64,000 bases of DNA from a virus (taxonomy: Duplodnaviria; Heunggongvirae; Uroviricota; Caudoviricetes): the IMG/VR virus record IMGVR_UViG_3300028888_000051, positions 163,384 through 227,383 of that record, one strand, 5' to 3'. The position numbers were made by a program, and so were the translations under genes. This document shows positions 20,819-64,000 of this stretch, piece after piece. A model generated the notes under the pieces. The model was not told the origin of the DNA. It made no database searches and was given only the letters and a program-made list of their open reading frames with translations. Each line of letters begins with the position of its first letter. The first letter of the stretch is position 1.

Positions 20819-21715
20819 ATGTCAAATGAATTAGTATTAAATTCAGAATGGACGCCTTTTTTAATAGAAAACAGAGCTTCTATTACATTTGATAAATTTT
20901 TAGATTTAATTAAACAATTAGATAACAATAGTTCACCAAATTTATGGACAAAATGGAAAAATTATGCTAATCAAGTAGTTATAGAAACACCAAATTACTA
21001 TTTTAAGTTATATGAAGATGATTATTTATGTGGTTCATTTTGGTCATTAATTCGCTCTACTTTAGGAGAGATATATACAAAATATTTTAATATTTTGTGG
21101 GATGTTAATATTATAAAGCAAAATAGTAAAATATATACACTCGAAAGACGTCAAAAATTAAATGTATGTATACCGAATTCAATTTTATATACTGATTTAC
21201 TTCTTAATTGGTCAAATACACTTAAAAAACTAGAAAATGAACTTTTATTATCAGAAATATGTCAACAACTTAAACCATATATTCCAGAATTAGCAGAACT
21301 TAAGTTGATACGTAATTGTATAAATAAATATGCAGATTATGCTATTACTGAAGATAATAATATTGTACTTTTAGATGATTCCGATTGGTTTATAGCTATG
21401 GTTGATAAAAACGGTAAATGGTTAAATTCAAAATTTAAAGGTTATAATATAATTTCTAGTTTAGGAGAAACAATTTTTGCTCCAGAGGGTTATTTTGATA
21501 AAGGAAATATAACTAAACATGAAGAATTTACAAATAAATGGCAAATTTATATGGAAAATATTAAAACTACAGAAATAGAAGGAATTTTATTTGATCAACG
21601 TGAACAAATGCTCAAAGATAATATATCTTTGATATTTAATCAAAAACTTTTGCCTAATCAAAATATAAAATCTTTTGATTCAGTAGGTGATTTACTTAAA
21701 ATTGGTTTTGAATAA
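20819..21715 (+). CDS. hypothetical protein (298 aa from the internal ATG)
   Basis: Track ORF starts at 20789 inside the upstream gene. ATG at 20819 (MSNELVL) follows the upstream stop and is the more likely start. The 3' end overlaps the convergent rSAM gene by 20 nt. Confidence 0.5.
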   Translation: MSNELVLNSEWTPFLIENRASITFDKFLDLIKQLDNNSSPNLWTKWKNYANQVVIETPNYYFKLYEDDYLCGSFWSLIRSTLGEIYTKYFNILWDVNIIKQNSKIYTLERRQKLNVCIPNSILYTDLLLNWSNTLKKLENELLLSEICQQLKPYIPELAELKLIRNCINKYADYAITEDNNIVLLDDSDWFIAMVDKNGKWLNSKFKGYNIISSLGETIFAPEGYFDKGNITKHEEFTNKWQIYMENIKTTEIEGILFDQREQMLKDNISLIFNQKLLPNQNIKSFDSVGDLLKIGFE

Positions 21716-22742: not shown

Positions 22743-23659
22743 TAGTCTCCTATCATTTCTAAAAAGTTTTCAACATCACTTCTTGGATGTATGTTAGAAT
22801 CAAAATATCCATAATTGTTTTCATCACAATAGGTATTCTTTTTATTTTCTGAATTATGTCTATCATTCATAATATAAAAATCTTTATCGTCAAATGAAGA
22901 ATAACATGTATCACTATGATTTACAATATTTATAAAATTTTCTAAATCATCTTTTGTAAACATTTTTGTTTCATAAGTATATTGTAAAAATTTAAGAAAG
23001 GTTTCTCTTCTCGGAAAAAAATTAGATAAAATTTTATTTTCGAAATCTTCAACATTTTTACATAGATGACCATAACCAGTCATTGGTAGCATATAATTTG
23101 TAAAGCAATTATAATTTTCATTGAATTCTTTTAAATTTAAACGATTAGACAACACTGCTTCTAACATAGCTTGAGTAACAATCATTTCAACATGAAGTTT
23201 TAAATTTGGATAATTTTTATGTAAAAATAACATATTATTTTGCCAATTTTTTAAAGTGTTATTATTAAATCTACCAATTATATCCCAAGAAGTACAAATC
23301 ATAAATTGATTCTGAAAGTTCTTTATATATTCACAAAATTCTAATAATTCAGAATTATCATCAAACATTAAAGCTGTTGTAATAAGACAGCGTTTAGCTA
23401 TTCCCATTTTAATTTTATTTATAAAACAGTCTATAATTTTATAAAAGTATTTTTTAACTTCAGCTGTATCTATTTCACCATTAAAAAATTCTCCACCGAT
23501 TATACCAAAATCAGAATATTTATCAGCTTCTTTTGTATTAAGAATATCTAAAACTTTTTTCATACATTTAACTTTATCTCTATGTCTAGGTATACCGTTA
23601 TTATAGCAAAATTTACATCCAAATGAACATTGTTTCCATAATTCAAATTGTAAAAACAT
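22742..23659 (-). CDS. radical SAM enzyme, paralogue C (305 aa), C-terminal Cys module degenerate
   Basis: CSFGCKFC; IIGGEFF; C-terminus YCDENNYGYFDSN lacks the EC..CD part. Confidence 0.8.
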   Translation of the reverse strand: MFLQFELWKQCSFGCKFCYNNGIPRHRDKVKCMKKVLDILNTKEADKYSDFGIIGGEFFNGEIDTAEVKKYFYKIIDCFINKIKMGIAKRCLITTALMFDDNSELLEFCEYIKNFQNQFMICTSWDIIGRFNNNTLKNWQNNMLFLHKNYPNLKLHVEMIVTQAMLEAVLSNRLNLKEFNENYNCFTNYMLPMTGYGHLCKNVEDFENKILSNFFPRRETFLKFLQYTYETKMFTKDDLENFINIVNHSDTCYSSFDDKDFYIMNDRHNSENKKNTYCDENNYGYFDSNIHPRSDVENFLEMIGD

Positions 23660-23660
23660 A

Positions 23661-24584
23661 TTACTCTCCTAGTATAAGTAAATCACAAAGCATACATTCA
23701 TCTGAATCTGCATAACATCTATATAATTCACTATGACCACATTCGGTAATATTTTCTTTACCATCAGATAAAATTGGTTGTTGAGTTATATCATTATTTT
23801 TATTACGTAAACCAGTATATTTATAAATCGCCGAAGCGTTAGTTGAACTATACATATTAGTATATATCTGTGGAAAGTTTTCTTTCAAATATATACAAAA
23901 ATTAAGAAAATCTTCACGTTTGAAGAAAAAGTCATTTAATTTAAAACCAGAATGTATTGGATGAGGATATAAAAAACAAAAATTACATCCTTTTAGTTCT
24001 TCTTCTAAAAAATATTTAAAATCAAATTTGTTAGACATAATATCATCAATAAGATATTGAGTTAAAATCATTTGAACTCCAACTGCATAATTATATCTAT
24101 CTCTAAATTTTTTGATATTTTCTAAAGCTAATAATCTTTTTTCTTCTGAAGGATATCTATATTTTATATCATAAGAAAAATTTACATCTATAAATCGCAT
24201 GTCTCCTGTTTTTTCTTTGATTCTGTCTATAACACGAAATAAAAATGCTGGATCATACATTCCATTAGTTACAGTTGAATAGCGACATCTATAAGAAGTA
24301 CTAACTAATAATATTTTATTTATGATGTCATCTATTAAAAGCATAAATTCATCTTGTATATCTTTATCGGTTATAAAATACAATTCACCACCTAAAAGAG
24401 ATATACCATCAGCAAATTTATCTTTCCAATCAATATAATCCAAATTTTTTCTTATTTTATGTATTTCTTCAATAAGTCTAGATTTATCCCAAACTTCACG
24501 ATTTTTTCGTAAACAGAATTTACAGTTATTGTTACAATTTGGCCAAAGTGAATATTGATTCATATAATGTTTAATTTCTAACAT
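23661..24584 (-). CDS. radical SAM enzyme, paralogue B (307 aa)
   Basis: CNNNCKFC; LLGGELY; C-terminal CGHSELYRCYADSDECMLCD. Confidence 0.8.
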   Translation of the reverse strand: MLEIKHYMNQYSLWPNCNNNCKFCLRKNREVWDKSRLIEEIHKIRKNLDYIDWKDKFADGISLLGGELYFITDKDIQDEFMLLIDDIINKILLVSTSYRCRYSTVTNGMYDPAFLFRVIDRIKEKTGDMRFIDVNFSYDIKYRYPSEEKRLLALENIKKFRDRYNYAVGVQMILTQYLIDDIMSNKFDFKYFLEEELKGCNFCFLYPHPIHSGFKLNDFFFKREDFLNFCIYLKENFPQIYTNMYSSTNASAIYKYTGLRNKNNDITQQPILSDGKENITECGHSELYRCYADSDECMLCDLLILGE

Positions 24585-25451
24585 TTACATTTTCTCCATT
24601 ATTTCTTTTAGCACTTTACAATCACAAACAAAACATTCATTTGAATCAGAATAACATTTTTTAAAATTTTCTGAATGACCACATTTACTTTTATTTGATG
24701 AGATATCAACTAGTTTTCCATTTTCAGATTTTTGTAAAATAATATTTTGATTTAAAAGAAAATTATTACAATATTCTGTACCATAACCTGGAAGTTGTTC
24801 ATTAAGTTTTAGAATAGTTTTAAAAACAGTTTCTCTTGTTGGAGCTTTTATGTCTTTTCCAAATTTTATATAGGGTATTGTATTTACTTTAACGTTATAG
24901 TTATTTTCATACTCAGCTATGTTAAATTTTTCAGATAATACATCATTACAAAAACTTCTGGTTAAAATAATATTGACATATATAAGTAACTCAGGAAATA
25001 AATTTCTAATTTCAGTGAGATTAAAATAAAATTGTTTCATAGAAAAAGAATTAGAAAATCTTCCATCTCCATCACCAGAAGTAGTAAAATGTATTCTATT
25101 TTCTAATTTATAATCTTTTATCATATTTAATATTGGTAAAAGAAGTTCATGAATATCATATAAAATATTTGTATTAATATAACATAATTCAATTTCATTT
25201 TTTAACATTTTTTCACAAGTTAATTTGAATAATTTAAATAATTGTGAATTTATTATTGTATTTTTTTCTGCAAATATTTCACCACCAACGAATAGTATAT
25301 GTGTATCAGTTAAGTCTTTTACTGCATTATATATTAATTTTATCGATTCAAGTTGTTCTTCATGAGTTTGTTGTTTTTCTCTTTTTTGCCAGCAAAATTT
25401 ACAATTATTTGGACAATTATTCCAAAGAATGAATTCATGTATAGGTAACAT
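24585..25451 (-). CDS. radical SAM enzyme, paralogue A (288 aa)
   Basis: CPNNCKFC; FVGGEIF; C-terminal CGHSENFKKCYSDSNECFVCDC; first gene of the four-gene operon. Confidence 0.8.
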   Translation of the reverse strand: MLPIHEFILWNNCPNNCKFCWQKREKQQTHEEQLESIKLIYNAVKDLTDTHILFVGGEIFAEKNTIINSQLFKLFKLTCEKMLKNEIELCYINTNILYDIHELLLPILNMIKDYKLENRIHFTTSGDGDGRFSNSFSMKQFYFNLTEIRNLFPELLIYVNIILTRSFCNDVLSEKFNIAEYENNYNVKVNTIPYIKFGKDIKAPTRETVFKTILKLNEQLPGYGTEYCNNFLLNQNIILQKSENGKLVDISSNKSKCGHSENFKKCYSDSNECFVCDCKVLKEIMEKM

Positions 25452-28674: not shown

Positions 28675-29259
28675 TTAAAATTCTTTTGTTTGTAACCAGT
28701 GTTTTCTACAAACAGATTTATACACTATATTATCTTTTTCGATTCCTATAACTTTATTTGAAGTATCTGGTTTTCTATTTACATAACGTAAATGATGTGT
28801 TGCTTTATTTGTACAATCTGGTTTTTCACATAACATTTCTATTTCTTGTATTTCATCTGCAAATTCAATAAAAGCTTTTGTACCTTCAAAAAGATTTCCA
28901 TTAATATCATTTTTTAGACCATATGCAATAATATTTATATTTTGTTGTTCAATTAACTTTGAAATAAAAATTACATCATCACGAGTAAAAAATTGTGCTT
29001 CATCAATAATAATTATTTTATCATAATTTATATTGTTTAATTCATTTTCAAAATTTTCAATATAATAAGCAGGTATTTTTTCTTTAATCAGTCTAGAAGT
29101 AGTATATCCCCAACCTTTTTGATTTCCATCTCGTGTATCTATAACTGGTTTTATTATAATAGGATTCATGTTTTTATATTTGTACATTTGATATGTTTTT
29201 ATTGCATTTACTGATTTACCTGCATTCATACATCCATAATAAAACTTTAATTTTGTCAT
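28675..29259 (-). CDS. tdk: thymidine kinase
   Basis: P-loop YGCMNAGKS; IIIDEAQFF; C-terminal zinc-site pattern C..C...H / C..H typical of type II TK. Confidence 0.85.
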   Translation of the reverse strand: MTKLKFYYGCMNAGKSVNAIKTYQMYKYKNMNPIIIKPVIDTRDGNQKGWGYTTSRLIKEKIPAYYIENFENELNNINYDKIIIIDEAQFFTRDDVIFISKLIEQQNINIIAYGLKNDINGNLFEGTKAFIEFADEIQEIEMLCEKPDCTNKATHHLRYVNRKPDTSNKVIGIEKDNIVYKSVCRKHWLQTKEF

Positions 29260-36250: not shown

Positions 36251-37018
36251 TTATTTTACACTGTTTATAAATGGAATTGGAGCTGAGCCATAAATATTTA
36301 CTGGTAATTTTCCATCCCATTTTTGTACAGCTTCATAAGCAACTAAATTTTGATTTTTACTTAGGGCTTCAGAACGAATAGCCATTGACTTAGCCTCTGC
36401 TTCAGCAGCAAGAACTTTTTGTTTAGCTTCTTCTTGGACTTCAGCTGTTCTATTCCTTGCTTCTTCAGCCTTTTGTGTTGCTACAACTTTAGCTTCAATT
36501 GCTCTTTCAAAAGCATCTGTATATTCAATATTATTTAAAGAAACTGAACTTATTTTTATATAAAAAGCTGTCAAAGTTGTATTTAAATCTCTTTTAATTT
36601 CATCTGTAGCTTTTTCACGATTAGCAACAAGATTTGCAGCATCCCATTTACCAATCACATCTTTAACAACAGCCTCAGCATTAGGACGTAATACTTTTTC
36701 TTCATAATTTTTACCAATTTCACGATGTAAATTAATAATATTATCTAAATCAAGACGATAATTGAGAGTAATTTTCATATTAGCCGTTTGAATATCTTTT
36801 GTATAGGTCTCTATTTCCATTGTATATTTTTGAGTTTTACCTTCATATTCAATTACATTACCACCAAATGGCATATAAAAATATAAACCTTCTTCTAATG
36901 GCTTTTCTGAAGTAATTTCACCCCACATTGTCTTCAAACCACGATTACCTGTATCAATTTGCTCACCACATCCAGTTAATGAGCAAACAATAAATAAAAC
37001 AGTAAAAATTTTTTTCAT
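36251..37018 (-). CDS. SPFH/band-7 (prohibitin-like) lipoprotein
   Basis: Lipobox SLTGC after a signal peptide; SPFH core; Ala/Glu-rich coiled coil QKAEEARNRTAEVQEEAKQKVLAAEAEAK; WDGKLP ending typical of the prohibitin/HflKC class. Confidence 0.8.
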   Translation of the reverse strand: MKKIFTVLFIVCSLTGCGEQIDTGNRGLKTMWGEITSEKPLEEGLYFYMPFGGNVIEYEGKTQKYTMEIETYTKDIQTANMKITLNYRLDLDNIINLHREIGKNYEEKVLRPNAEAVVKDVIGKWDAANLVANREKATDEIKRDLNTTLTAFYIKISSVSLNNIEYTDAFERAIEAKVVATQKAEEARNRTAEVQEEAKQKVLAAEAEAKSMAIRSEALSKNQNLVAYEAVQKWDGKLPVNIYGSAPIPFINSVK

Positions 37019-37882: not shown

Positions 37883-38470
37883 TTATTGATGGTTTTTAAC
37901 TATTTCATCAGTAACACCATAATCAATTGCTTCTTCTGCTGACATCCAAAAATCACGTTCACAATCTTTTTTAACTTGATTAATATCTTTATTTGTAGCA
38001 TTAGCGATCATTTGCATTAACATATCTTGTAATCTGCTAACTTCTTCTAATGTAATTTTCATATCATGAACATTTGCTTGCATACCACTACTAACAGAAT
38101 GAAGCATATATCTAGCATGAGGCATTATTTTACGCATACCTTTTGTACCAGATAATGCAATCATAGCATCCATAGAGGCAACTTCACCTGATACAATAGT
38201 TGATACAGGACATGAAATCATATTCATAGTATCAATAATCTGTAAACCAGCTGTTACACTTCCACCTGGTCCACTAACAATCATTGTAATAGGTTTATCT
38301 TTATCTTCTGCTTCTAAATATAAAAGTTGAGCAACAACACTTTCGGCTAATTCATCATCAACTTTACCACAACATAAAATTAATCTATCACGAATTAATC
38401 TTGAAGTAATATCAACTTGACGTTCGTTACCATTAGAATCTTTATAAATAACTGATGGAATTCCTATCAT
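37883..38470 (-). CDS. clpP: ATP-dependent Clp protease proteolytic subunit
   Basis: GPGGSVTAGLQIIDTM, GEVASMDAM (catalytic Ser context), MLHSVSSG (His) and WMSAEEAIDYGVTDEI are collinear with ClpP. Confidence 0.85.
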   Translation of the reverse strand: MIGIPSVIYKDSNGNERQVDITSRLIRDRLILCCGKVDDELAESVVAQLLYLEAEDKDKPITMIVSGPGGSVTAGLQIIDTMNMISCPVSTIVSGEVASMDAMIALSGTKGMRKIMPHARYMLHSVSSGMQANVHDMKITLEEVSRLQDMLMQMIANATNKDINQVKKDCERDFWMSAEEAIDYGVTDEIVKNHQ

Positions 38471-41027: not shown

Positions 41028-42377
41028 TTAAGCTATAATATTATCTGGTCCATTATTAATTGATAAATCATATTTTTGTTTATAAAAAGGACCTACTTTA
41101 TTTAGCATTTTTTTAACCGTAGAGTGAATACTTTCATTTTCTAAATCAATTATGCCTTCAGGAACCTCTTGCTTACCACGAAGTAAAATACGAGCAATAA
41201 GTTGACCTAATTCAAAGCACATAGATTCATCAAAACCCCGAGTTGTAATCGCTGGAGTACCAATTCTAATTGCAGAAGATTCAGATGGTTTAGTATCACC
41301 CGGCATCATGTTTTTATTACAAATAATATGATATGATGTTAATAAGTCTTCAGCCTGTTTACCATTTATACCAGAATTTCTAAGGTCTACTAATACCATA
41401 TGATTTTCTGAGCCATTACTAATGAATCCTATTTTATTTTCTTTATCGAAATCTCTTATACCATTGATAAGTGCTTGCATATTACAATATACTTGTTCTA
41501 TATAATCTTTAAATTCTGGTTTGAGAGCTTCAATAAAACATTGTGCTTTAGCAGCAACAAGTGCTTCATTTGGACCACCTTGAATTTTTGGAAAACACCC
41601 ACTGTTAATTTTACTACAAAGTTTTTGGTCATTCCAAAGAATTATACCACCACGAGGTCCTCTTAAAGTTTTGTGTGTTGTAGAAGTGATCACATCACAC
41701 CATTTAGTTGGATCATATTTATCTTTCCATAAATGAGCAGCAATAAATCCCATTACATGAGCTGAATCAGACATAAGATAACATTTTGTTTCTTCATCCC
41801 TACCAAGATTATATACATCTACCAATTTCCTTATATATTCATAATTAATTCGTTTAGAATAAGCTGAAGCTCCAACAACTAACATTCTTGGATGATATTG
41901 AAGTAATTTTTGTTTAATTTCTTCATAATTCAATTCACCATTTTCATCAAGACCATAATATACAGGATTATATATATGACCTGTTAATGAAGCTTTAGAG
42001 TAGTGTGTCAAATGTCCGCCATATTCTATGCCCATTCCAAGTACTGTATCACCTGGTTTTAAAAGACCTGCATATACAGCTTGATTAGCCTGAGAGCCAG
42101 AATGAGGTTGAACACAAGCAAAATTTACATTAAATAATTCTTTAGCTTTTTCTATAGCATAATTTTCTACTTCATTTATTACTTCACATCCAGCATAATG
42201 ACGTCCCTGTTTAGAAACTTCATTTGGAAATCCTTCTGCATACTTTACAGATAAATGACTTCCCAAAAGATCAAGAATATCTTGACTTGGATAGTTTTCT
42301 GAAGCTATTAATTCAATACCATCATTAAGACGATTTGTCTCTTTGCTTTCTAATTGTTGTAATTTTTGATCAATCAT
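41028..42377 (-). CDS. glyA: serine hydroxymethyltransferase
   Basis: LIASENY, YAEGFP, VQPHSGSQAN, GGHLTH and TTHKTLRGPRGG (PLP-Lys context) are all present in order. Confidence 0.95.
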   Translation of the reverse strand: MIDQKLQQLESKETNRLNDGIELIASENYPSQDILDLLGSHLSVKYAEGFPNEVSKQGRHYAGCEVINEVENYAIEKAKELFNVNFACVQPHSGSQANQAVYAGLLKPGDTVLGMGIEYGGHLTHYSKASLTGHIYNPVYYGLDENGELNYEEIKQKLLQYHPRMLVVGASAYSKRINYEYIRKLVDVYNLGRDEETKCYLMSDSAHVMGFIAAHLWKDKYDPTKWCDVITSTTHKTLRGPRGGIILWNDQKLCSKINSGCFPKIQGGPNEALVAAKAQCFIEALKPEFKDYIEQVYCNMQALINGIRDFDKENKIGFISNGSENHMVLVDLRNSGINGKQAEDLLTSYHIICNKNMMPGDTKPSESSAIRIGTPAITTRGFDESMCFELGQLIARILLRGKQEVPEGIIDLENESIHSTVKKMLNKVGPFYKQKYDLSINNGPDNIIA

Positions 42378-50991: not shown

Positions 50992-51210
50992 ATGTATGAA
51001 AAATTAATAGATCTTAAAGATAATTTTTTATTTTGTATTGCAACTACATTTGTTGGAATTTTAATTATGATAATAGCTAGTGTTATTATAATTATAACAC
51101 TTCCAATGTATTATTTATTTTGGATAAATCCAGTATTTGAAATTTATCAAAATTTAATTTGGAAAATATATGATATATTATTTCAAATTGGATCAGATGA
51201 TGAAATTTAA
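50992..51210 (+). CDS. small membrane protein (72 aa, two hydrophobic segments); holin-like topology
   Basis: FLFCIATTFVGILIMIIASVIIIITLPMYYLFWINPVF; AAAGGAAA RBS. Confidence 0.45.
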   Translation: MYEKLIDLKDNFLFCIATTFVGILIMIIASVIIIITLPMYYLFWINPVFEIYQNLIWKIYDILFQIGSDDEI

Positions 51211-54200
51211 ATTAAGTCTTGCAATTCTTCAGAAGATTGATCTATAAAATTTGAATAATCATTTACTTTTTCTTTTATTTGATTAGAAGAAATATATTCA
51301 TATTGCGGAAAATCTGAATAATTAAGCTGTGCATTATATATAAAACCAACAATTACATCAGCTAAATCTTTTAATTCAGTAGTTCGAGTTACTTTTCCTC
51401 TATCAAAAACAAGAGCCGATAATTCTTTTCTGAGTTTTGGACATATTCCTACTTTTACCTGTCCTAATTCCATTAAAGTAGATGCATTAACATAAGGTTC
51501 AAGTTTTATATCGACTGAAACTTTATTTACTACTTCGAAACATCCCGATTTAGCTAAATTTTGTTGAAAAATTTCTCCATTCCATTGATCGCTTGATACT
51601 GTATGAATTAGCATATTACGTTCAATTACTAAATTTATTAAAAAAGTTTCTATTGCATGTATATCTATTTTATTTCTTGCATTCACAGCTATAAGTAAAT
51701 CAACTACATATATTGTTTCATTTTCTTTTTTATTTTCATTATAACGCCATTCTTTATGACCAATACATATACCAGCATCACATTGTCCAGAATCACCACC
51801 TCCTGCTAAATCTACATGACAATAACGTTTTGCAAAAGGAGCTCTTTTAAATATCCATCTACCATCTGTTAATTGTTCCCATAAATTATATTCATCTAGT
51901 AAAGCTAATATATCATTATTATCACTTATATCAGCTTTAATATTAAATTCTGGAGGCAATTCAGCATCTTCAATTTTTGATATATCTTTAAAGACTGTAC
52001 TGTTATCTACAGTTGTCATTCCTGCAATATCTTGAATAGACTGATCTAATTGTAATTCAAATTTTTCTTTATATACAGTTGGAACATTTATTACTTCACA
52101 TCCAATGGGTGGTATATAATTTCCATCTTCTAAAGCTTTCAATTCACCAGGATCGGTAAATATTTTAGAAGGAATTGAGCCATTACCAACAAGAACAGGA
52201 AATGTAGAGCCATCACCTAAAAACTCAGGATCTTCTTTAACTTCCCAAAGCCGAGGCATAAGAATAAGAATAGATGGATCATTTTTTGGCAATCGACGTA
52301 TGTATTCACCAATAGGACTATTTGTTGTACGAGCTGATGATACAACTGACTGAAATACTAAAGGACTTCCTTGAAAACGTGAACTAAAACGATTATCAAC
52401 TGAATTAAGAAGTGCCAAAGCTTCATCTACACCTTTTTCATTGATCTCATCCATAAAGCTATTTACTATATTCAAACCTATAGTATGAGTTATACCTGAA
52501 CCAGATGTAATAATAATATTGTCTGGAAAATATATCGTGCCTGTCGATTTTTCCACATTAAATGGTATTGGACAATGTGGATCCGATAAATCAAAATTTT
52601 CAAAAGATTGCATTCGCATAACTCTTTGAAAACACGGCATTGTTTCCATAAGTTTAACAAATGGTAATAAATTTGTTTCATAAACTTGTTTTAAAGTCAT
52701 AGAAATAATAACATTTGCTATTGTTGCATCACTATCTATATTAAATACTGCTCTAGGATAACGTAAACATAATATACGATATAAAACATATAAAAAAGCT
52801 TTACGAGCAATTGTTGACTTACCACAATTATGTGCAATTATACCAGCCTTTAAAGCAAAATTATGATTTTTTTCTGTAGTTATATCATAAACTTGTTGTT
52901 TACCTATATATTCTATAGAAATTATTTTATGATTGTATATTTTTTTACGCTTGTAATTTTCTTTAGCCCCTAAAGTAGGATCATACCAAGGCTCTCTTGT
53001 ATGAATAAATGCTAATAATTCAATGTATTTTTGATTTTCTTTTCCATGGAATCTTGCAATAGTAGCTAATACTTGTTTAGCCAATATAATTGCTTTTTCT
53101 TCAGGACTTTTGTTGGCTTTTAAATTACGCATATTTTCAGCCATTTTTTTAGAAATATTTCTAGCCTTTTCTGTTTTATTTCTTTCTATTAAAGTTTTAC
53201 TTGCTCTTTGTCTATATTCTTCACTATGTGGACCATTCCAACCGGCAAGCGAAGCTTTTCTTTGGTGTTCTGAATCTTGATGTAGTTTATTCCATCCAAT
53301 TTTTCTTTTTGCTTCTATCTCTTCATAATCTAAGCGAGCTTTATAGGTAATATGACTTTTTATTCCTTTTTGTCTTCTGTATTCTTTAAATTCATCACCT
53401 CTAATTGAAGCATTATATTCTTTCCATCTTCTACCTCCAACTTTAGCGTGATATTCCCAATGATATTTGTGAGGTATAATAGCTAAATTTTGAGGTCTAT
53501 CATCTAATTTATTAAAATTTTTATGGTGAACAACTTGTCCAGTTTTATATAAAGTTTTCCATTTACCTACTATTTGATATCTTTTTTCCCATTTTTCAGT
53601 AGTATTATTTTTTATTTGAATATATCCTTTATCACTAATTTTTGAATAATAAGGCATCATAGATTCACCAGATTTTAATCCAGTATCTATACTTTTCCAT
53701 TTATTTTTTCTTGTTAAAAATCTATGATCTGATGTACATTTAATTATTTCACCATTGTCTAAAGTTATTTTATACACATCTTTTATACCACTACAAAATA
53801 CATTAATTATCTTATCTGGTTCCCAAGTTTTATTAAATGTATTAAATGATAATACCCATTCATTATTATAATTATTAAGTAATTCATAAATTGTTTTATT
53901 ACCATTTAAAGTAGCTACTATCGTATCACCGGTTAAGCAACCAATACTTCCACCAAATATAGTTTTTCTTACTGGTGAGCCTTCCCTAAACATATATTCA
54001 AGTTGTTGTCGCCAATAAGGATATAATGTAGCATTACTATTATACATATAAAATTTACCAGATAAAAATTCTTCAATATTAGGCATAGGTCGTCTATATA
54101 AAAGATTATCAATTTGATCTGTTAAATCAGAATCCTGATTTGTTAATGTCAAATATAAAGCAATACGTTTTTGTATTTCTTGTTGCTTTTTAAATTCATC

Positions 54201-54344
54201 TGGCATATAATGCTCTTCATAATATGCTAAAATGTCTATAAAATCTTGTGACATAATAACATTTTGAAGTTCATTTGCATTATTAAATGAAACTATTGGA
54301 AGATTTTCTAATTTTTTTGCAATATCAGTAGGAAGTTGTTCCAT
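51207..54344 (-). CDS. terL: terminase large subunit, interrupted by an intein in the Walker A motif
   Basis: The exteins join to FGGSIG|CGKST (P-loop). Walker B-like SFMDEINE. Nuclease-domain pattern CHVDLAGGGD...DAGICIGH. Confidence 0.85.
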   Translation of the reverse strand: MEQLPTDIAKKLENLPIVSFNNANELQNVIMSQDFIDILAYYEEHYMPDEFKKQQEIQKRIALYLTLTNQDSDLTDQIDNLLYRRPMPNIEEFLSGKFYMYNSNATLYPYWRQQLEYMFREGSPVRKTIFGGSIGCLTGDTIVATLNGNKTIYELLNNYNNEWVLSFNTFNKTWEPDKIINVFCSGIKDVYKITLDNGEIIKCTSDHRFLTRKNKWKSIDTGLKSGESMMPYYSKISDKGYIQIKNNTTEKWEKRYQIVGKWKTLYKTGQVVHHKNFNKLDDRPQNLAIIPHKYHWEYHAKVGGRRWKEYNASIRGDEFKEYRRQKGIKSHITYKARLDYEEIEAKRKIGWNKLHQDSEHQRKASLAGWNGPHSEEYRQRASKTLIERNKTEKARNISKKMAENMRNLKANKSPEEKAIILAKQVLATIARFHGKENQKYIELLAFIHTREPWYDPTLGAKENYKRKKIYNHKIISIEYIGKQQVYDITTEKNHNFALKAGIIAHNCGKSTIARKAFLYVLYRILCLRYPRAVFNIDSDATIANVIISMTLKQVYETNLLPFVKLMETMPCFQRVMRMQSFENFDLSDPHCPIPFNVEKSTGTIYFPDNIIITSGSGITHTIGLNIVNSFMDEINEKGVDEALALLNSVDNRFSSRFQGSPLVFQSVVSSARTTNSPIGEYIRRLPKNDPSILILMPRLWEVKEDPEFLGDGSTFPVLVGNGSIPSKIFTDPGELKALEDGNYIPPIGCEVINVPTVYKEKFELQLDQSIQDIAGMTTVDNSTVFKDISKIEDAELPPEFNIKADISDNNDILALLDEYNLWEQLTDGRWIFKRAPFAKRYCHVDLAGGGDSGQCDAGICIGHKEWRYNENKKENETIYVVDLLIAVNARNKIDIHAIETFLINLVIERNMLIHTVSSDQWNGEIFQQNLAKSGCFEVVNKVSVDIKLEPYVNASTLMELGQVKVGICPKLRKELSALVFDRGKVTRTTELKDLADVIVGFIYNAQLNYSDFPQYEYISSNQIKEKVNDYSNFIDQSSEELQDLI
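52827..53939 (-). mobile_element. class-1 intein (371 aa) with HNH endonuclease domain
   Basis: Starts CLTGDTIV; block B CTSDHRF; HNH core VVHHKNFNKLDDRPQNLAIIPHKYHWEYH; ends VYDITTEKNHNFALKAGIIAHN followed by the +1 Cys. Coordinates derived from residues 136-506 of the track ORF. Confidence 0.8.
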
Positions 54345-55217: not shown

Positions 55218-57167
55218 ATGAAAAATATTTGTAAAAATTGCGGCAAAGAATATGAATTTGAACCAAAGCATGGAACCTATAAATTTAAGTATTGTTCTCA
55301 AGAATGTAAACATGCCTTTGCGAAAAAAGATGAAGAACCACAATATAGGATTTGTGAATATTGTGGTAAAGAATATTGGTGGAGTAATTCGTTTAAAAAT
55401 TATAAAGAATATGTACATATAGATACAAAACGTTTTTGTTCTGCTGAGTGTAGTAAAAATTATAAAAAAGAAAAAATTAAACAAACATGTTTAAAAAAAT
55501 ATGGTGTTGAATATATTTCACAAACTGCAGATGTTAAAGAAAAAATGAAAAATGCATGGAAAAATAAATCAGAAAAAGAATTAAAATTGCGTCAAGAAAG
55601 TAGAAAGCAAACTAATTTAAAAAAATATGGTGTTGAACATGTATCTAAATTATCTGAAATTAAAGAAAAAGTAAAGCAAACAAATTTAAAAAAATTTGGT
55701 GCTGAATTTTATACACAAACAGATGAATATAAAGAAAAATATAAACAAACCAATCTTAAAAAGTATGGTGTAGAGCATTGTTCACAAGTACCAAAAATAG
55801 CAGAAAAAATAAAAAATAGTCTATTAAATAAATCTAAAGAAGAATGGGTTAAAATTATAGATAAGAGAAAGCATACTAATTTAGAGAAGTATGGTACAGA
55901 AAGTGCTTCTCAGAATAATGATATAAAACAAAAAGTAAAACAAACTAATTTAAAAAAATTTGGAAACGAAATAGCAATTCAATCAGATATTATACAATCT
56001 AAAATTAAACAAAATAATCTTGAAAAATATGGTGTAAAATATAGTATAGCATCTAATGAAGTACAAGAAAAAATTCGTACTACAAATTTGAAAAGATATA
56101 ATTATGAATATCCATTTCAATCTGAAGAATTAAGAAAAATTATGGAAGAAAATAGAAAAAAGACGAATCTTAAAAAATATGGTACAGAAAACATTAGTCA
56201 AGTTAAAGAATTTAAAGAAAAAGCAAAAAATACATGTTTGAAGAAATATGGTGTACCATATAATTGTATGACTGAAAATTGTTTAGAAGTAGGACATAGT
56301 ACTATATCTAAAATAAATTTGGCTTTTAAAAATAAATTAGATAAATTAAATATTCAAAATAAACTAGAATTTCATATTGATAAATGGAGTTATGATTTTT
56401 TATGTAATGATAAGTTTTTAATTGAAATTAATCCTAGCTATACACATAATTCATCTAATACTAAAAAACGATTGGAATTTATGAAGCCAAAAGATAAATA
56501 CTATCATTTTAACAAAACTAAATTAGCTTATGAAAATGGTTATCAGTGTATTCATATATGGGATTGGGATGATAAAGAAAAAATTTTAAATATACTTGTT
56601 GATAAAAAGAAAATATATGCTAGAAAATTAATATTAAAAAATGTATCAAATGAAGAATGTAATGAGTTTTTAAATTCATATCATTTACAAAATACATGTA
56701 AAGGACAAACTATTAGATTAGGTTTATATAAAGATAATGAATTGATACAATTAATGACATTTGGAAAAGCGAGATATACAAAAAATTATGAATATGAATT
56801 ATTAAGATTATGTACAAAAGCAGAATATAAAGTTATCGGAGGAGCAGAAAAATTATTTAAACATTTTTTAATTATATATAATCCAAAATCTATAATTTCT
56901 TATTGTGATAATTCAAAATTTTCAGGAGAAGTATACAAAAGATTAAATATGAATTTGAAAGATTATGGAACACCAAGAAAGCATTGGTATCATATAGAAA
57001 AAAATAAACATATTACAGAAGCACTTTTACTTCAAAGAGGTTATTCACAATTACACGGTGATAAAGAACATATAAAAGGTGAAAATAATGAAAAACTGAT
57101 GTTAGAAGCAGGATATGTAGAAATATATGATTCTGGTCAAAGTACATATGTTTGGCATAAAAACTAA
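55218..57167 (+). CDS. free-standing homing-endonuclease-like protein (649 aa): two Zn ribbons, ten tandem repeats, nuclease-like core, C-terminal domain
   Basis: CKNCG..CSQEC and CEYCG..CSAEC. Ten copies of K.TNLKKYG.E..SQ...(I/V)KEK.KQ. YDFLCNDKFLIEINPSYTHN resembles the DUF559/Vsr-like PD-(D/E)xK core. ARKL..KNVS..E...FL..YHLQ tail. Confidence 0.55.
   Translation: MKNICKNCGKEYEFEPKHGTYKFKYCSQECKHAFAKKDEEPQYRICEYCGKEYWWSNSFKNYKEYVHIDTKRFCSAECSKNYKKEKIKQTCLKKYGVEYISQTADVKEKMKNAWKNKSEKELKLRQESRKQTNLKKYGVEHVSKLSEIKEKVKQTNLKKFGAEFYTQTDEYKEKYKQTNLKKYGVEHCSQVPKIAEKIKNSLLNKSKEEWVKIIDKRKHTNLEKYGTESASQNNDIKQKVKQTNLKKFGNEIAIQSDIIQSKIKQNNLEKYGVKYSIASNEVQEKIRTTNLKRYNYEYPFQSEELRKIMEENRKKTNLKKYGTENISQVKEFKEKAKNTCLKKYGVPYNCMTENCLEVGHSTISKINLAFKNKLDKLNIQNKLEFHIDKWSYDFLCNDKFLIEINPSYTHNSSNTKKRLEFMKPKDKYYHFNKTKLAYENGYQCIHIWDWDDKEKILNILVDKKKIYARKLILKNVSNEECNEFLNSYHLQNTCKGQTIRLGLYKDNELIQLMTFGKARYTKNYEYELLRLCTKAEYKVIGGAEKLFKHFLIIYNPKSIISYCDNSKFSGEVYKRLNMNLKDYGTPRKHWYHIEKNKHITEALLLQRGYSQLHGDKEHIKGENNEKLMLEAGYVEIYDSGQSTYVWHKN
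55476..56282 (+). repeat. ten tandem coding repeats of about 23-43 codons inside 55218..57167
   Basis: Repeat cores TCLKKYGVEY, TNLKKYGVEH, TNLKKFGAEF, TNLKKYGVEH, TNLEKYGTES, TNLKKFGNEI, NNLEKYGVKY, TNLKRYNYEY, TNLKKYGTEN, TCLKKYGVPY. Confidence 0.8.
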
Positions 57168-58440: not shown

Positions 58441-58856
58441 ATGTATGGATGTCTCCAAAGTGTGGTGAAAATTGTTCAATATCAATTAATAATAGTATAT
58501 TGTTTACATTATATGATCCTAAAGAAATGTTTTTAATTAATTTAGCTAATATAATTGAAATGAAAAATAATAATAAAGAACAAGAAATTAAAGATAATAC
58601 AATAATTACTCTTCAAAATATTAAAGATGATATACAAATAAAATATTGGTTATTAAATGAAGATAACAATATAGCAACAGCTTTTGTTGAAATGGTAATT
58701 AAACAAAAAAATTATAATGAACTTTATGATATGTATAGTTTATTTAAAATGAATAAAAATTATATAAATAAATATATAAATATTATAGAATCTGATAATT
58801 TTAAATATAATGAATTAAGACGGTTATTTCAAAATGGATGTCTTATTTTAAATTGA
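58425..58856 (+). CDS. hypothetical protein (143 aa)
   Basis: Operon member; 16-nt overlap with the upstream gene. Confidence 0.5.
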   Translation: MDKKINVWMSPKCGENCSISINNSILFTLYDPKEMFLINLANIIEMKNNNKEQEIKDNTIITLQNIKDDIQIKYWLLNEDNNIATAFVEMVIKQKNYNELYDMYSLFKMNKNYINKYINIIESDNFKYNELRRLFQNGCLILN

Positions 58857-58866
58857 GTTCTATGAA
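58855..58866 (+). promoter_or_regulatory. GAGTTCTATGAA box overlapping the stop of 58425..58856
   Basis: About 30 nt upstream of ATG 58893. Confidence 0.35.
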
Positions 58867-58892
58867 AAGTTAGTTAAGTTAAGGGTGATAAA

Positions 58893-59129
58893 ATGACAGA
58901 ACAAGAAGAAATTGAAGAAAAAATTAAACAAACAGCTATTAGAAATAATTTTGATTTATCTGATAATTTACATAAAATTGCTAAAGGTAAATTAATGTTT
59001 TTTGGAACAAAAATGTGGATGAAATGTCCATGTGATCCAGATAGTGATAGAGCTTGTATAAGTAAACATTGTAAACAAGATATTGAAAATGATGGTATTT
59101 GTCATTGTCAGTTATATAAAAAAAGATAA
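58893..59129 (+). CDS. small Cys-rich protein resembling the ferredoxin-thioredoxin reductase catalytic subunit
   Basis: CPC-x8-C-x4-C-x9-CHC-x-LY compares with the FTR CPC...CPC...CHC.LF arrangement (from memory). Confidence 0.4.
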   Translation: MTEQEEIEEKIKQTAIRNNFDLSDNLHKIAKGKLMFFGTKMWMKCPCDPDSDRACISKHCKQDIENDGICHCQLYKKR

Positions 59130-59155
59130 CTGATTAGAGTGTTATTTTTTATAAA

Positions 59156-59200
59156 TGGAAAAATAATTCAGTAGAATATTTTTATTACTTTTATTCTATA
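59156..59200 (+). promoter_or_regulatory. TGGAAAAATAATT ... GTAGAATA hairpin ... TTCTATATAAT element upstream of recA
   Basis: Shares ATAAATGGAAAAATAATT and GTAGAAT with the element at 60971..61034. Weak 7-bp stem TAGAATA/TATTCTA. Confidence 0.4.
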
Positions 59201-59231
59201 TAATACTTTTAATTATAAAAAGGAAATTAAA

Positions 59232-60326
59232 ATGGCTAAAAAAATAGAAAAAAAAGTTCAAAAGGAAAATTCTCGTGTAACTTCAGCATTATCATTACTT
59301 CGTAAAAAATTTGGTGATGATGCAGCAATGACTTTTAATGACATAGGTGTTACAAAAGTAGATGTAATTCCTTCTGGTTCTTTAAAATTAGACAAGATAT
59401 TAGGAATTGGTGGATGGCCACGTGGCAGAGTTACGCTTTTATGGGGTGATTATAGTTCTGGTAAATCAACGATATGTTTACAAGCCGTAGCTAATGCACA
59501 AAAAGAAAATTTAGTTTGTGCTTATGTTGATATGGAACATGCTTTAGATCCTATTTATGCTGAAGCACTAGGTTGTGATATGTCTGAATTAATTTTACTT
59601 CAACCAGATGGTGGTGAACAAGCACTAGAAGCTATTAAATTATTAGCACAAGAAAAAGCAGCTGATTTAATTATTCTTGATTCAATTGTTGCATGTGTAC
59701 CAGCAAGTGAATTAGATGGTGAATTATCTGATATGAATATTGGACGTCAAGCAAAGTTATTTAGTTCATTTTTTAAACAAGTTACTCCAGCACTTGAAAT
59801 AGCAAATTGTGCTTTAATTTGTACAAATCAAGTTCGCCAAGCTCCAGGTAAATATGGAGATGCATCTGTTTTACCTTGTGGAGAAGCTCAAAAATTCTTT
59901 GCTTCTATTATTTGCCGTACTCGTAGACAACAATCTCAAAAAGAAGAAAGTAAAGAAGGTGATATTATTGCAAATCAAATTAGTGTAACTACAGAAAAGA
60001 ATAAATTGGCCCCTCCATTCAGAAAAGCAGAATTAATGATTTATTATGGTAAAGGTTTTTCAGCAGATAATGAAATGTTAGATTTAGCTGTAGAATTTGG
60101 TATATTAACAAAAGCTGGAGCATTTTATAAATATAAAGGAGAAACTATTGGACAAGGATCTGCTAAAACTAAAATTTGGTTAGAAGAACATAAAGATATT
60201 AAAAATAATATAATGGAACAAGTTAAAGAAATTCTTATGAAGCCTAATAATGAAAAAATGATTTTAGAAAAAGAAGCAGAGTCAGAGTTAAATTATGATC
60301 CGGATACAGGTGAAATAATAGAATAA
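59232..60326 (+). CDS. recA: RecA recombinase (bacterial type)
   Basis: IPSGSLKLDKILGIGGWPRGRVTLLWGDYSSGKSTICLQ, AYVDMEHALDPIYAEALG, LIILDSIVA and CTNQVRQ are collinear with bacterial RecA. Confidence 0.9.
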   Translation: MAKKIEKKVQKENSRVTSALSLLRKKFGDDAAMTFNDIGVTKVDVIPSGSLKLDKILGIGGWPRGRVTLLWGDYSSGKSTICLQAVANAQKENLVCAYVDMEHALDPIYAEALGCDMSELILLQPDGGEQALEAIKLLAQEKAADLIILDSIVACVPASELDGELSDMNIGRQAKLFSSFFKQVTPALEIANCALICTNQVRQAPGKYGDASVLPCGEAQKFFASIICRTRRQQSQKEESKEGDIIANQISVTTEKNKLAPPFRKAELMIYYGKGFSADNEMLDLAVEFGILTKAGAFYKYKGETIGQGSAKTKIWLEEHKDIKNNIMEQVKEILMKPNNEKMILEKEAESELNYDPDTGEIIE

Positions 60327-60337
60327 GGAGAAATAAA

Positions 60338-60706
60338 ATGCTAGAATTTTTAAAAAAATTGTTAAGAATTGGCGAAAAATGTTATTGTGAAGGTATATGT
60401 CATTGTAAAAAGATTACATGTGATGGTCCAGATTTAGAAGAAGATTTTGATGAAACAATTACACGTAAAGATTATAAAATTACTATACCTTATAGTATAA
60501 ATGCAGAATTAAAAAAAGAAGGTATTTCGATTTCAGCTACAAAATATAATGGAAAACCTTCGTGTGTACAAATGTTTAAAGTAGTTGATGGAAAAGTAAA
60601 ATACATCGGTACATTAAAAACATATATGAACGTTAAATCTTTTAAAGATAACAACGTTTGTAATTTTAGTCGTGAAAACTTAATTTATAAAGAAAAGGAA
60701 AATTAA
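60338..60706 (+). CDS. hypothetical Cys-rich protein (122 aa)
   Basis: N-terminal CYCEGICHCKKITC cluster; lies between recA and the gapR-like gene. Confidence 0.5.
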   Translation: MLEFLKKLLRIGEKCYCEGICHCKKITCDGPDLEEDFDETITRKDYKITIPYSINAELKKEGISISATKYNGKPSCVQMFKVVDGKVKYIGTLKTYMNVKSFKDNNVCNFSRENLIYKEKEN

Positions 60707-60707
60707 A

Positions 60708-60965
60708 ATGACAGAACAAGTAGATGTTGAAGTCGGTGGTTTAAATACTGAAAGATTAAAATCTATTATTGAACGTATAGAAAATGTAGATAATGAGATT
60801 AATGCATTAAAAGAAGATAGAAAAGGTATAATGCTTGAAGCAAAATCTGCAGGTTTTGATACAAAAGCTATTACCCATGTTATTAAACAAAGAAAAAAGA
60901 ATAAAGCACAGCGAGATGAAGAGGAATTAGTTTTCGAAACCTATGAAAGAGCTGTTGGTTTATAA
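60708..60965 (+). CDS. gapR: GapR-like (DUF2312/UPF0335) DNA-binding protein
   Basis: LKSIIERIENVDNEINALKEDRKGIMLEAKSAGFDTKAITHVIKQRKKNKAQRDEEELVFETYERAVG is collinear with Caulobacter GapR as I recall it. Confidence 0.75.
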   Translation: MTEQVDVEVGGLNTERLKSIIERIENVDNEINALKEDRKGIMLEAKSAGFDTKAITHVIKQRKKNKAQRDEEELVFETYERAVGL

Positions 60966-60976
60966 TACATTATAAA

Positions 60977-61030
60977 TGGAAAAATAATTTAAATAATTTA
61001 GTAGAATCCATATAAAGTATGGATTCTATT
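60977..61030 (+). promoter_or_regulatory. TGGAAAAATAATT ... hairpin ... TTCTATTTTTATATTTA element upstream of polB
   Basis: Shares an 18-nt string with 59151..59168. The TTCTA box forms the 3' arm of the hairpin at 61002..61028. Confidence 0.4.
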
Positions 61031-61034
61031 TTTA
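61002..61034 (+). terminator. hairpin with T-run after the gapR-like gene
   Basis: Perfect 11-bp stem TAGAATCCATA/TATGGATTCTA, loop TAAAG, then TTTTT. Confidence 0.55.
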
Positions 61035-61059
61035 TATTTAAGTTAAAGGAGTCAATTTA

Positions 61060-64000
61060 ATGGAAAATATTATAAAGAATAGAAGTAAAGATGAATATAT
61101 TTGTACACTTGGTCCAAAATTATTATTAATTGCACTTAAACCTTTAGATAATGATAAAAAAGAAATATTTGATTCAATACAAGGTATTGAATATTTGAGT
61201 AATTGTTTCAAAAGTAAGTTTAAATCCGCAGAAACTCATGTTACATATTTATTAGATACTGATTCTAATTCTAATTTATTTCAAAATGGTTTTTATGATA
61301 TATTCAATTATTACAATAAAAAAGGTACTTTTGATCCTAAACAATTTATGATAGGATTTATAGGTCAAAAGTCTTTTGATGAATTCAAATATAAGTCTGA
61401 CTCCCTTGTATTTGATGGGGTATATAGTGTAGGGCTTCGTGAAATTACTTCAAGCATAAGAATTTATATATCTGGAATTAATGGAAATAAAGATTTTTAT
61501 GCTCCCTACATTATATTACCTGATGTAACTGAAGATTTTTCTAAAACTAATGTTTTATTAGATAATACAAAAATAGCCCAATCTATAACTACTTCACCAT
61601 ATAGTACAACAAAAGAAGTAATTGATCATTTTAAATTATTAATTGAAAAATATAATGCAGGTGATATAAAAGGGTTTAGATTTAATTCAAAAATAAATTT
61701 TGATTTACCTAAACCGAAAACCGAATATTTCAAAGTATATGATTATGGTACAACACATGAATTAGTTTATTGTCCTTCTGATATTATTTGTGAAAATGAT
61801 ACTTTAGAATTAAAAAATGAATTTAAAAAAAGTTTAATTGAATTATTTAAAACTGTACCAATTTGTGGAGATGATATAGAAAAAACACTTAGTTTATATA
61901 AATTTCCTGGACATGAACAAATAAAAATTGTTGAAGAAAAAGATATTATTCCTGATCCATATGAAATTATATTAGATAGACCTTATTTTAAAATCGTAGG
62001 AAGCAGAAATGGTACTCCTTCTAATTGGTATACTAAATGGAGAAATGAAGTATTCTATGGCTTAAATTTAGACAAAAAAACAATAAAGCGCGAAGGATAT
62101 GACGATAGTTTAAAATATGAATGGATTTATGATATAGAGGTTTTTAAAAATGATTGGCTGTTTGTTGCAAAATCAATAGATGGCGAAAGTAAAGTTGTTT
62201 GCTGGAATGATCCTATAAATTTAGCTAAATGGATTAAAAATAAAATTTTGATTGGTTTTAATAATGCTGGATATGATGATGCTGTTATTCATCATGCATT
62301 AGTTTATCCATATGCTGTAAAGGGTGCTTTAACAGTTAAAGAATTTTCTGATTTAATGATTTATGATGAATTAGATAATGTAAAAAGACGTCCTGAAATA
62401 AGAGAAGAATTTAAAAATCAAAGATTAGTTTTTGATCCTCCATTTTTGTCATGGGATTTAAGTTTTCATATGCCATTTGATATTAGACGTAATTCATTAA
62501 AAAAACTTACAATGTCTATACTCAATAAACGGAATTATGATTCAAATGTACCATTTGATACTCCTAGACCACTAACTAAAGAAGAGCGTAAAGAAGTAGA
62601 AAAGTATTGCGAAATGGACGTTGATAACACTCGTGATTTATTTTTACCAGATCCAGAAGATGTTAAGAAAAAAGAAGAAAATCCAAAATATAAAATGAGA
62701 GAATTTGCAAGAGATTCTTATGATATTAAATGGAATTTGATTGTTGAATATAAAATGACTGCAAAAACTCTTATTACAAAATCTTCATCTTTTGCTGGAA
62801 AAGTGTTATGTGGAGAAGACGCTAAACCAAATCTTCAAAATACCTTTAAGCTAGTAGATGGCAAAAGACAATATTATCTTATTCCAGAAATGGCATATAA
62901 AGAATTAGAAGGAACACCTGTTTTAAATTTTTATATTAAACATCAAAGTAATCCAGATTATATAAAAGAAAAATTTGAATATTATATGGGAGGAAATGAT
63001 GAAAGTCATAAATATCAATTTGGTTTTGGTGGACTTCATCAAGCTTTAGTTAATTTTGGATCTACTAATCTTTGTAATTTTGATGTAGCTAGCTTATATC
63101 CATCATTACTTATTCAATATAATCTAATGTCACGAGGTGCAGAAAAAAATCCAGATTCTTATAAAGAAGTGTATCATACACGTATAGCAGCTAAACATGA
63201 AGGTAAAACATTATTAAATCTTGGTTTAAAATTAGTATTAAATGGTGCTATAGGAGCAATGTTAAGTAACTATAATCCATTATATGATACTTGGTCTAAT
63301 TCGAGCATTTGTGTACATGGACAATTACTTTTATTTATTCTTTGCAAGCGTCTTTATGAAGCAGGATTTAATATTGTTCAAACTAATACAGATGGTATTA
63401 TGGTAGAGCGTAGAGAAGATATAGACTTTATGCCAATTTGTAAAAAATGGGAAGAAGAAACAAGACTTGTTCTCGAATATGATGACATTGCGATTTTACA
63501 ACAAAATAATGTTAACAACTATTATTGTCAATTTACAAATGGAAAGGTTAAGTCTAAAGGTTTTTATTTATCAAATGAAAAATATGGTAAAGCAACAAGT
63601 ATTATTCTTTGTAATATGGTAACAGGTAAACCATTATTAGAAGGAACAGAACCTAGAGACTATGTAATTTATAAACGTCATAGTATTGGTGAAATTTATG
63701 ATGGAAAAACTAATCAAAAATTAGAAGGTCGTAGTTTAGCATTTGTTGTTGGTTATCCAGAAGATTCTAGAACACAATCTTATTATAGTCGTAGTCGTAA
63801 TGAAAGAGAAGTAGTTAAAAAAGATGAAAATGGAAAAGCTATAGTAGATGAAAATGGAAATAATGTAATGGAAACAATAAATAGTATTTCTAAAATTAAT
63901 GGTTTTACTGAACATATGCTTTTGGTAGATGATACAAATACATTAACTTTTGATGAAATTAACACAAAAGAATATATAAATTTTGCTAAAAACTTACTTG
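61060..64000 (+). CDS. polB: family-B DNA polymerase with a roughly 345-aa extra N-terminal region (3'-truncated by the window edge; absent from the ORF track)
   Basis: Hand translation from ATG 61060 (RBS AAAGGAG) stays open to 64000. ExoI YDIEVF (codons 357-362), ExoII GFNNAGYDD, ExoIII YCEMDVDNT, motif A DVASLYPS, motif B KLVLNGAIGAM, motif C QTNTDGIMV. Confidence 0.85.
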   Translation, partial: MENIIKNRSKDEYICTLGPKLLLIALKPLDNDKKEIFDSIQGIEYLSNCFKSKFKSAETHVTYLLDTDSNSNLFQNGFYDIFNYYNKKGTFDPKQFMIGFIGQKSFDEFKYKSDSLVFDGVYSVGLREITSSIRIYISGINGNKDFYAPYIILPDVTEDFSKTNVLLDNTKIAQSITTSPYSTTKEVIDHFKLLIEKYNAGDIKGFRFNSKINFDLPKPKTEYFKVYDYGTTHELVYCPSDIICENDTLELKNEFKKSLIELFKTVPICGDDIEKTLSLYKFPGHEQIKIVEEKDIIPDPYEIILDRPYFKIVGSRNGTPSNWYTKWRNEVFYGLNLDKKTIKREGYDDSLKYEWIYDIEVFKNDWLFVAKSIDGESKVVCWNDPINLAKWIKNKILIGFNNAGYDDAVIHHALVYPYAVKGALTVKEFSDLMIYDELDNVKRRPEIREEFKNQRLVFDPPFLSWDLSFHMPFDIRRNSLKKLTMSILNKRNYDSNVPFDTPRPLTKEERKEVEKYCEMDVDNTRDLFLPDPEDVKKKEENPKYKMREFARDSYDIKWNLIVEYKMTAKTLITKSSSFAGKVLCGEDAKPNLQNTFKLVDGKRQYYLIPEMAYKELEGTPVLNFYIKHQSNPDYIKEKFEYYMGGNDESHKYQFGFGGLHQALVNFGSTNLCNFDVASLYPSLLIQYNLMSRGAEKNPDSYKEVYHTRIAAKHEGKTLLNLGLKLVLNGAIGAMLSNYNPLYDTWSNSSICVHGQLLLFILCKRLYEAGFNIVQTNTDGIMVERREDIDFMPICKKWEEETRLVLEYDDIAILQQNNVNNYYCQFTNGKVKSKGFYLSNEKYGKATSIILCNMVTGKPLLEGTEPRDYVIYKRHSIGEIYDGKTNQKLEGRSLAFVVGYPEDSRTQSYYSRSRNEREVVKKDENGKAIVDENGNNVMETINSISKINGFTEHMLLVDDTNTLTFDEINTKEYINFAKNLL

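Follow-up and report, generated by a model that had tools for sequence, protein, structure and literature searches.

An uncultured, very AT-rich phage encodes a protein of the GapR family (PF10073/DUF2312/UPF0335), whose gene is flanked by those of a RecA-like recombinase and a family-B-type DNA polymerase. We found this gene in a stretch of DNA of 64,000 nucleotides (the window), which belongs to a ~227-kb contig (ena:ERZ27257205:k141_5434835). The window has a GC content of 26.4%, in agreement with the extreme AT-richness that an earlier sequence-only reading had ascribed to the phage. We identify the window as phage DNA because it encodes a head maturation protease, BppL-type baseplate domains, a tail chaperone, SbcCD, and a GH19/VgrG3-like lysin domain; ClpP is also present. 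A megablast search of the 5-kb region 58800-63800 against GenBank phages gave no match at the DNA level, and the phage is therefore one without a close sequenced isolate. We found no tRNAs in the 64-kb window, and the use of genetic code 4 (Mycoplasma-type) was ruled out, as TGA terminates 9 of the 78 ORFs of the window. The locus comprises the following features:

59232-60326, plus strand: recA, a divergent phage RecA/UvsX-like recombinase (PF00154, E = 3.7e-77; RecA_C; PHROG 97)
60338-60706, plus strand: Cys-rich ORF of 122 aa between recA and gapR (ORF call), with an N-terminal CxCxxxCxC motif
60695-60699, plus strand: Shine-Dalgarno core AAGGA of gapR, 8 nt before the ATG and within the end of the upstream ORF
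60708-60965, plus strand: gapR, 85 aa, with helices predicted at aa 14-47, 52-62, and 66-82
61000-61040, plus strand: terminator-like hairpin with a 14-bp stem and a 3-nt loop, followed by a T-rich run (consensus scan, MFE fold)
61045-61051, plus strand: Shine-Dalgarno sequence AAAGGAG of the polymerase gene
61060-64000, plus strand: family-B-type DNA polymerase (PHROG 1252), the N-terminal 980 aa of 1235, running off the window

The ORF of gapR is exactly the one given by the sequence-only reading. Its ATG lies one base beyond the TAA (60704-60706) that terminates the 122-aa ORF, and Shine-Dalgarno cores such as the one that precedes it occur upstream of 52 of the 78 ORFs in the window, against a background of 5.7%. 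Relative to the window gene, three nearly identical copies from metagenomes carry 5, 4, and 2 nucleotide changes, and all 11 of these are synonymous. On this substitution pattern, gapR is a real gene that is expressed as a protein and is under purifying selection.

The assignment to DUF2312/GapR, also made from the letters of the sequence, was borne out by a Pfam profile search, in which the product matched PF10073 (GapR_DNA-bd) with an E-value of 2.1e-23 and a score of 82.1 bits, for a gathering cut-off of 22.6 bits. The match is full-length, with aa 14-84 of the product covering positions 2-72 of the 72 in the profile. The product also matched PHROG 4212, a family without assigned function (E = 8e-22), and a search by sequence alone led directly to the GapR structures solved for Caulobacter and Bosea (E = 5e-12 to 5e-11). 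The predicted model of the monomer has one long N-terminal helix and two short ones, and can be superposed on the solved GapR protomers. Together, the profile matches and the predicted fold confirm that the protein is a member of the GapR family. It is not a GapR orthologue by the standard of NCBIfam, since it scores below the cut-offs of both the GapR equivalog NF052541 (61.9 bits for a cut-off of 140) and the PRK13694 subfamily NF010247 (71.8 bits for a cut-off of 94). The name given by NCBI to a close relative is merely "DUF2312 domain-containing protein".

The gene had been placed between recA and polB. These genes do flank it, but the 122-aa ORF lies between recA and gapR. This ORF has no match in Pfam or PHROG; homologues occupy the same position in the loci L101, L102, and L086 to L088, and it is missing in L090, which belongs to a subclade with a GapR of 77 aa. 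The identification of the polymerase rests on a match to PHROG 1252 "DNA polymerase" (E = 9.5e-92), on tblastn matches to phage polymerases annotated as family B (E down to 9e-24), and on the motifs DIE, DxxSLYPS, and NTDG in its translation. Searches of Pfam and of PDB sequences gave no match for it. Its full length of 1235 aa was seen in L001. The spacer between gapR and the polymerase gene measures 94 bp and contains the terminator-like hairpin, one of 3 sites seen in a consensus scan for which 0.5 were expected. Two other subclades have a hairpin of unrelated sequence at the equivalent position of this spacer. Hence, gapR and the polymerase gene are adjacent and yet probably do not form one simple co-transcribed unit.

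The phage belongs to a widespread clade. We found 88 protein clusters with 62-100% identity to the query GapR, many of them on contigs of 150-285 kb, and the samples that could be identified came from rumen and pig gut (STEW19, GAIO21). Three subclades can be told apart by the length of GapR (85, 77, and 88 aa). In every clade locus that we examined, recA comes first, followed by the small ORF (except in the 77-aa group), gapR, and the polymerase gene. This order is identical in the deep IMG/VR relatives L099 to L102, which have a GC content of 28-31% and whose polymerases and RecA proteins are, respectively, 58-64% and 40-44% identical to those of the window. Since the order is shared down to a polymerase identity of 58%, gapR must have been fixed in this module before the clade diversified.

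In relatives, proteins with DUF723/DUF4379 domains are inserted at differing sites around recA and the polymerase gene (6644-7624 in L002, 1137-2207 in L005, and 11985-13109 in L090), and in their behaviour these insertions resemble mobile genes of the homing-endonuclease type. The recA genes beside the insertions in L002 and L005 have diverged. In the window, two large proteins are encoded upstream of recA:

51207-54344, minus strand: protein of 1045 aa with an intein (PF14890) with HNH endonuclease, an MJ0330_N domain, and weak similarity to the terminase large subunit
55218-57167, plus strand: DUF7487 protein of 649 aa with repeated "NLKKYG.E" modules

Relatives (L002 and L086) have a LAGLIDADG intein instead, and in L088 the place of the 1045-aa protein is taken by a pair of neighbouring ORFs (371 and 457 aa), of which the first weakly matches MJ0330_N. 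The intein content thus appears to vary among strains.

The closest characterised relatives of the phage protein are the GapRs of Caulobacter crescentus (CCNA_03428 / CC_3319; PDB 6CG8, 6OZX, 6JYK) and Bosea (6CFX/6CFY), which fall in the same Pfam family. The solved chains are 32-39% identical to the phage protein, with which they have a three-helix architecture in common. The Caulobacter protein is slightly larger (about 89 aa against 85) and chromosomally encoded. It acts on a GC-rich chromosome (about 67% GC), whereas the genome that would be the target of the phage protein has 26% GC. The totals of basic and acidic residues are presumably in agreement between the two proteins.

We compared individual residues using a HMMER alignment to 6jyk, whose numbering is identical to that of native GapR, and took the roles of the residues from published work (PMC7498317, PMC7373187, PMC6853979). 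In Caulobacter, the pairs R26-E47, E28-R65, and E31-K66 form salt bridges between subunits, and Y82 lies in the core of the tetramer (PMC7498317). All of these are kept in the phage protein, with E31 as D. The corresponding query residues (R23, E44, E25, R62, D28, K63, and Y79) are conserved across the clade. Most, and indeed nearly all, of the hydrophobic positions of the coiled coil are kept as well. The channel is lined by the lysines K34, K42, K49, K56, K59, and K66, which are needed for DNA binding; their joint mutation abolishes DNA binding by Caulobacter GapR, while K59A alone weakens it in vitro and is tolerated in vivo (PMC6853979, PMC7373187). Four of these six lysines are kept in the phage protein (K42, K49, K56, and K66), together with the DNA contact R63 (as K), and two are replaced, with I in the place of K34 and T in that of K59. 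Further differences are found at K60, which is H in the query, and at the interface positions I41 (R), I64 (Q), and L81 (T). Because of the interface changes, a tetramer is not to be assumed for the phage GapR.

These replacements are a property of the subclade and not of the single sequence. In all 88 clusters of the window's subclade, position 34 is I, V, or M, position 41 is R, position 59 is T, N, or A, and position 64 is Q or L, and in 85 of the 88 position 60 is H or Y. The subclade also has new basic residues at position 41 (R), at 67 (usually K), and often at 38 (K). Seven residues separate position 34 from position 41, and the two therefore occupy the same heptad position; the alignment suggests that a basic side chain may have been shifted by one heptad along helix 1 and not lost. 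In the deep relatives L101 and L102, the canonical K34, I41, Y45, and R59 are all retained, which shows that this rewiring arose within the phage lineage.

Phage-borne GapR is a known kind of protein. We identified homologues in 136 GenBank phage records and in 199 IMG/VR matches, often already annotated as DUF2312 or GapR. Phages Cr30 (Caulobacter), vB_OspM_OC (an Ochrobactrum jumbo phage), phiKX1 (Komagataeibacter), Cd (Azospirillum; gp10), and R34L1 (Erythrobacter) all encode single-domain DUF2312/UPF0335 homologues, and the DUF2312 proteins of alphaproteobacterial phages are 34-50% identical to the query. A paper of 2025, in which R34L1 is reported at 61.6% GC, claims the "first" GapR in a phage (PMC12185513), a claim contradicted by the 136 GenBank phage records that carry the domain. 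Isolates such as Cr30 and vB_OspM_OC have known alphaproteobacterial hosts, whereas the window phage is uncultured and very AT-rich. The named hosts among the GenBank matches listed are alphaproteobacteria, except for those of four Microcystis phages and one Synechococcus phage (for example PP438417, Microcystis phage Mwe-JY25, and KY249644, Synechococcus virus S-ESS1). The view of the family as largely confined to alphaproteobacteria and phages therefore held, bar these five cyanophages, which show that phage GapRs are not strictly bound to alphaproteobacterial hosts. We found no experimental or functional study of any phage GapR in the literature.

What could such a protein do for the phage? 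GapR assembles into tetramers around DNA, with a preference for DNA that is AT-rich and overtwisted, and makes it stiffer (PMC13408042, PMC6853979). It also stimulates the removal of positive supercoils and the progression of forks (PMC6853979, PMC7498317, PMC13408042). From homology and gene order, we favour, with moderate confidence, a role of the phage protein as a DNA clamp that aids the replication and transcription of a large AT-rich genome. The 9.7-kDa product would be made from a recA-orf122-gapR unit within the replication/recombination module, and would fold as Caulobacter GapR does, with a long helix and two short ones. Antiparallel coiled-coil pairing would give a dimer of dimers around double-stranded DNA, with basic side chains gripping the phosphate backbone. 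Its target would be the phage's own genome, which is 74% AT, including the overtwisted DNA ahead of forks and RNA polymerases. A preference for AT would give no site selectivity, because the genome is AT-rich throughout. There, the protein may keep the DNA stiff and overtwisted, may help type II topoisomerases to remove positive supercoils, or both, and the outcome would be the quick replication and transcription of a genome of ~230 kb. No topoisomerase domain was found among 25 of the 26 families listed for the 64-kb window.

A role in replication or topology is strengthened by the synteny across the clade and by two unrelated phages in which the homologue is similarly placed. In Cr30, the gene of a recombination endonuclease subunit lies upstream of the gapR homologue, and those of the sliding clamp and clamp loader lie downstream. 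In vB_OspM_OC, the homologue follows helicase and ligase genes. The topology or replication accessory factor proposed in the sequence-only reading is thus a reasonable inference, but the hairpin sets gapR apart from the polymerase gene. The replacement of two of the six DNA-binding lysines (K34 and K59) speaks against the clamp, as do the changed interface positions, the scores below both NCBIfam cut-offs, and the lack of a topoisomerase domain among the families listed for the window.

The phage invests strongly in nucleotide metabolism and possibly in DNA modification. The window encodes a serine hydroxymethyltransferase (SHMT), a thymidine kinase, a DHFR, a QueC-like protein, and several radical-SAM-like proteins, as well as a ClpP protease and an SPFH/Band-7 domain protein:

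21696-25451, 28675-29259, and 41028-42377, minus strand: ORFs of nucleotide metabolism and possible DNA modification
36251-37018 (probable location), minus strand: SPFH/Band-7 domain protein adjoining clpP, with a match to PHROG 200 "lipoprotein"
37883-38470, minus strand: ClpP protease (E = 9e-62)

Neighbouring loci of the clade encode a dUTPase, a dNMP kinase, a thymidylate-synthase homologue, and a dGTP diphosphohydrolase-like domain. The annotation suggests that the DNA of the phage may contain modified bases (7-deazaguanine and/or a hypermodified pyrimidine). A clamp such as GapR, which binds the backbone, would tolerate them.

The gene had also been thought to hint at the lineage of the host, which our results do not establish. 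The best cellular matches of the query are in alphaproteobacterial MAGs. They are at most 55% identical, many come from gut or rumen, and they have 31-45% GC; the genes around one of these homologues (P0089, 53% identical) are those of an ordinary chromosome. Sequence similarity thus supports an alphaproteobacterial origin of the phage gene. However, because the gene is ancient in the phage clade, an alphaproteobacterial type of gapR does not fix the present host. The canonical GapRs of the clade are ~60% identical to those of high-GC (Roseomonas) and low-GC alphaproteobacteria alike, which led us to reject a host assignment from the nearest cellular GapR. That the query itself is closest to low-GC alphaproteobacterial MAGs may reflect the amino-acid bias of low-GC genomes.

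Contigs of the clade have been deposited in MAGs labelled Bacilli, Clostridia, Acholeplasmatales, and Succinivibrionaceae. Examples are L007 (JBJFGR010000097.1, "Succinivibrionaceae"), whose GapR is 100% identical to that of L102, a 237-kb IMG/VR contig, and NCBI MBR2240094, MBR4618407, and MBR3617997. The four labels are non-alphaproteobacterial and contradict one another, and we rejected them as evidence of the host. These contigs are probably mis-binned phage DNA, and they could mislead surveys of DUF2312 that are based on taxonomy. Two other proteins of the window carried no host signal: outside the clade, the identity of RecA to its nearest representatives does not exceed 45%, and the top 120 matches of SHMT all lie within the phage clade. 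The GH19-type lysin domain argues for a host with a cell wall, and the frequent Shine-Dalgarno sites argue against Bacteroidota, which make little use of them. As a marker of the host, gapR is therefore suggestive, in that isolated phages with GapR nearly always infect alphaproteobacteria, but not decisive. We regard as a tentative possibility, and a rather unlikely one, that the host lies outside alphaproteobacteria (for example a low-GC Firmicute or a member of Succinivibrionaceae of the gut or rumen) and that the rewired GapR (K34I, I41R, K59T) serves the phage as a topology sensor or chromatin protein.

The preferences of GapR would also suit a histone-like protein that coats the AT-rich genome in bulk, organising it, bridging it, or protecting it from host nucleases and silencers, with no role at the fork. 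GapR favours AT-rich DNA and forms very stable complexes with it (PMC13408042), it bridges DNA in vitro (PMC7373187), and the phage has 26% GC throughout, so that its whole genome would be a preferred substrate. One could even speculate that the loss of two phosphate contacts tunes the affinity. However, Caulobacter has ~500 GapR tetramers per cell, which is insufficient to coat its genome (PMC13408042), and the conserved placement in a replication/recombination module favours a role in DNA transactions over packaging. We therefore think this explanation unlikely.

Transcription offers another explanation, which we consider quite unlikely, namely that the protein acts like DsbA of T4, a small dsDNA-binding protein that enhances particular (e.g., late) phage promoters. 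T4 DsbA has been reported as a remote homologue of GapR (Iyer et al. 2021; PMC7824862), and it weakly matches PF10073 (E = 0.026). Like the phage GapR it is a small phage protein encoded in a replication cluster, in this case one of replication and late transcription (genes 32, 59, 33, dsbA, rnh); the dsDNA binding is that of DsbA. The query matches PHROG 639 "transcriptional regulator" weakly (E = 0.0056), several homologues in Rhodobacter phages are annotated as "DsbA-like protein", and GapR bound to AT-rich DNA itself activates transcription (PMC13408042). T4 DsbA nevertheless belongs to a different Pfam family (PF11126, Phage_DsbA). We rejected membership of the query in that family, which is absent from its Pfam matches at E-values up to 1, and BLASTP between the query and T4 DsbA gave nothing (E = 16). 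The closest characterised relatives of the query are instead bona fide GapRs. Finally, it is very improbable that the protein halts host replication by forming mixed oligomers with the host GapR, competing for its sites, or interfering with topoisomerases: the host, if it is an alphaproteobacterium, would depend on a GapR of its own, alphaproteobacteria have the nearest cellular homologues, and diverged copies of host regulators are common in phages, but R at position 41 of the coiled-coil core and a hydrophobic residue at 34 would be expected to disfavour mixing with canonical GapR, and vertical inheritance through a deep phage clade with the DNA-binding residues kept fits a direct function on DNA.

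The novelty lies in the carrier, an uncultured and very AT-rich clade of jumbo phages, in the stable linkage of gapR to recA and the polymerase gene, and in the exchange, specific to this clade, of two mapped DNA contacts. Of the bacterial proteins that sense positive supercoiling by encircling overtwisted DNA, GapR is the best understood. Here, its gene has long been retained beside those of a recombinase and a replicative polymerase in a clade that is widespread in gut and rumen. The GapRs of this clade are natural variants with which one could test how the charge pattern of the clamp relates to its affinity on extremely AT-rich DNA, and the protein is a candidate for the way in which giant phages handle the supercoiling driven by replication. 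The interest would be greater if the host proved not to be an alphaproteobacterium. In that case, a clade of jumbo phages would have moved GapR out of its usual lineage, and the protein would act, independently of any host GapR, on a genome of 230 kb that is 74% AT and possibly base-modified.
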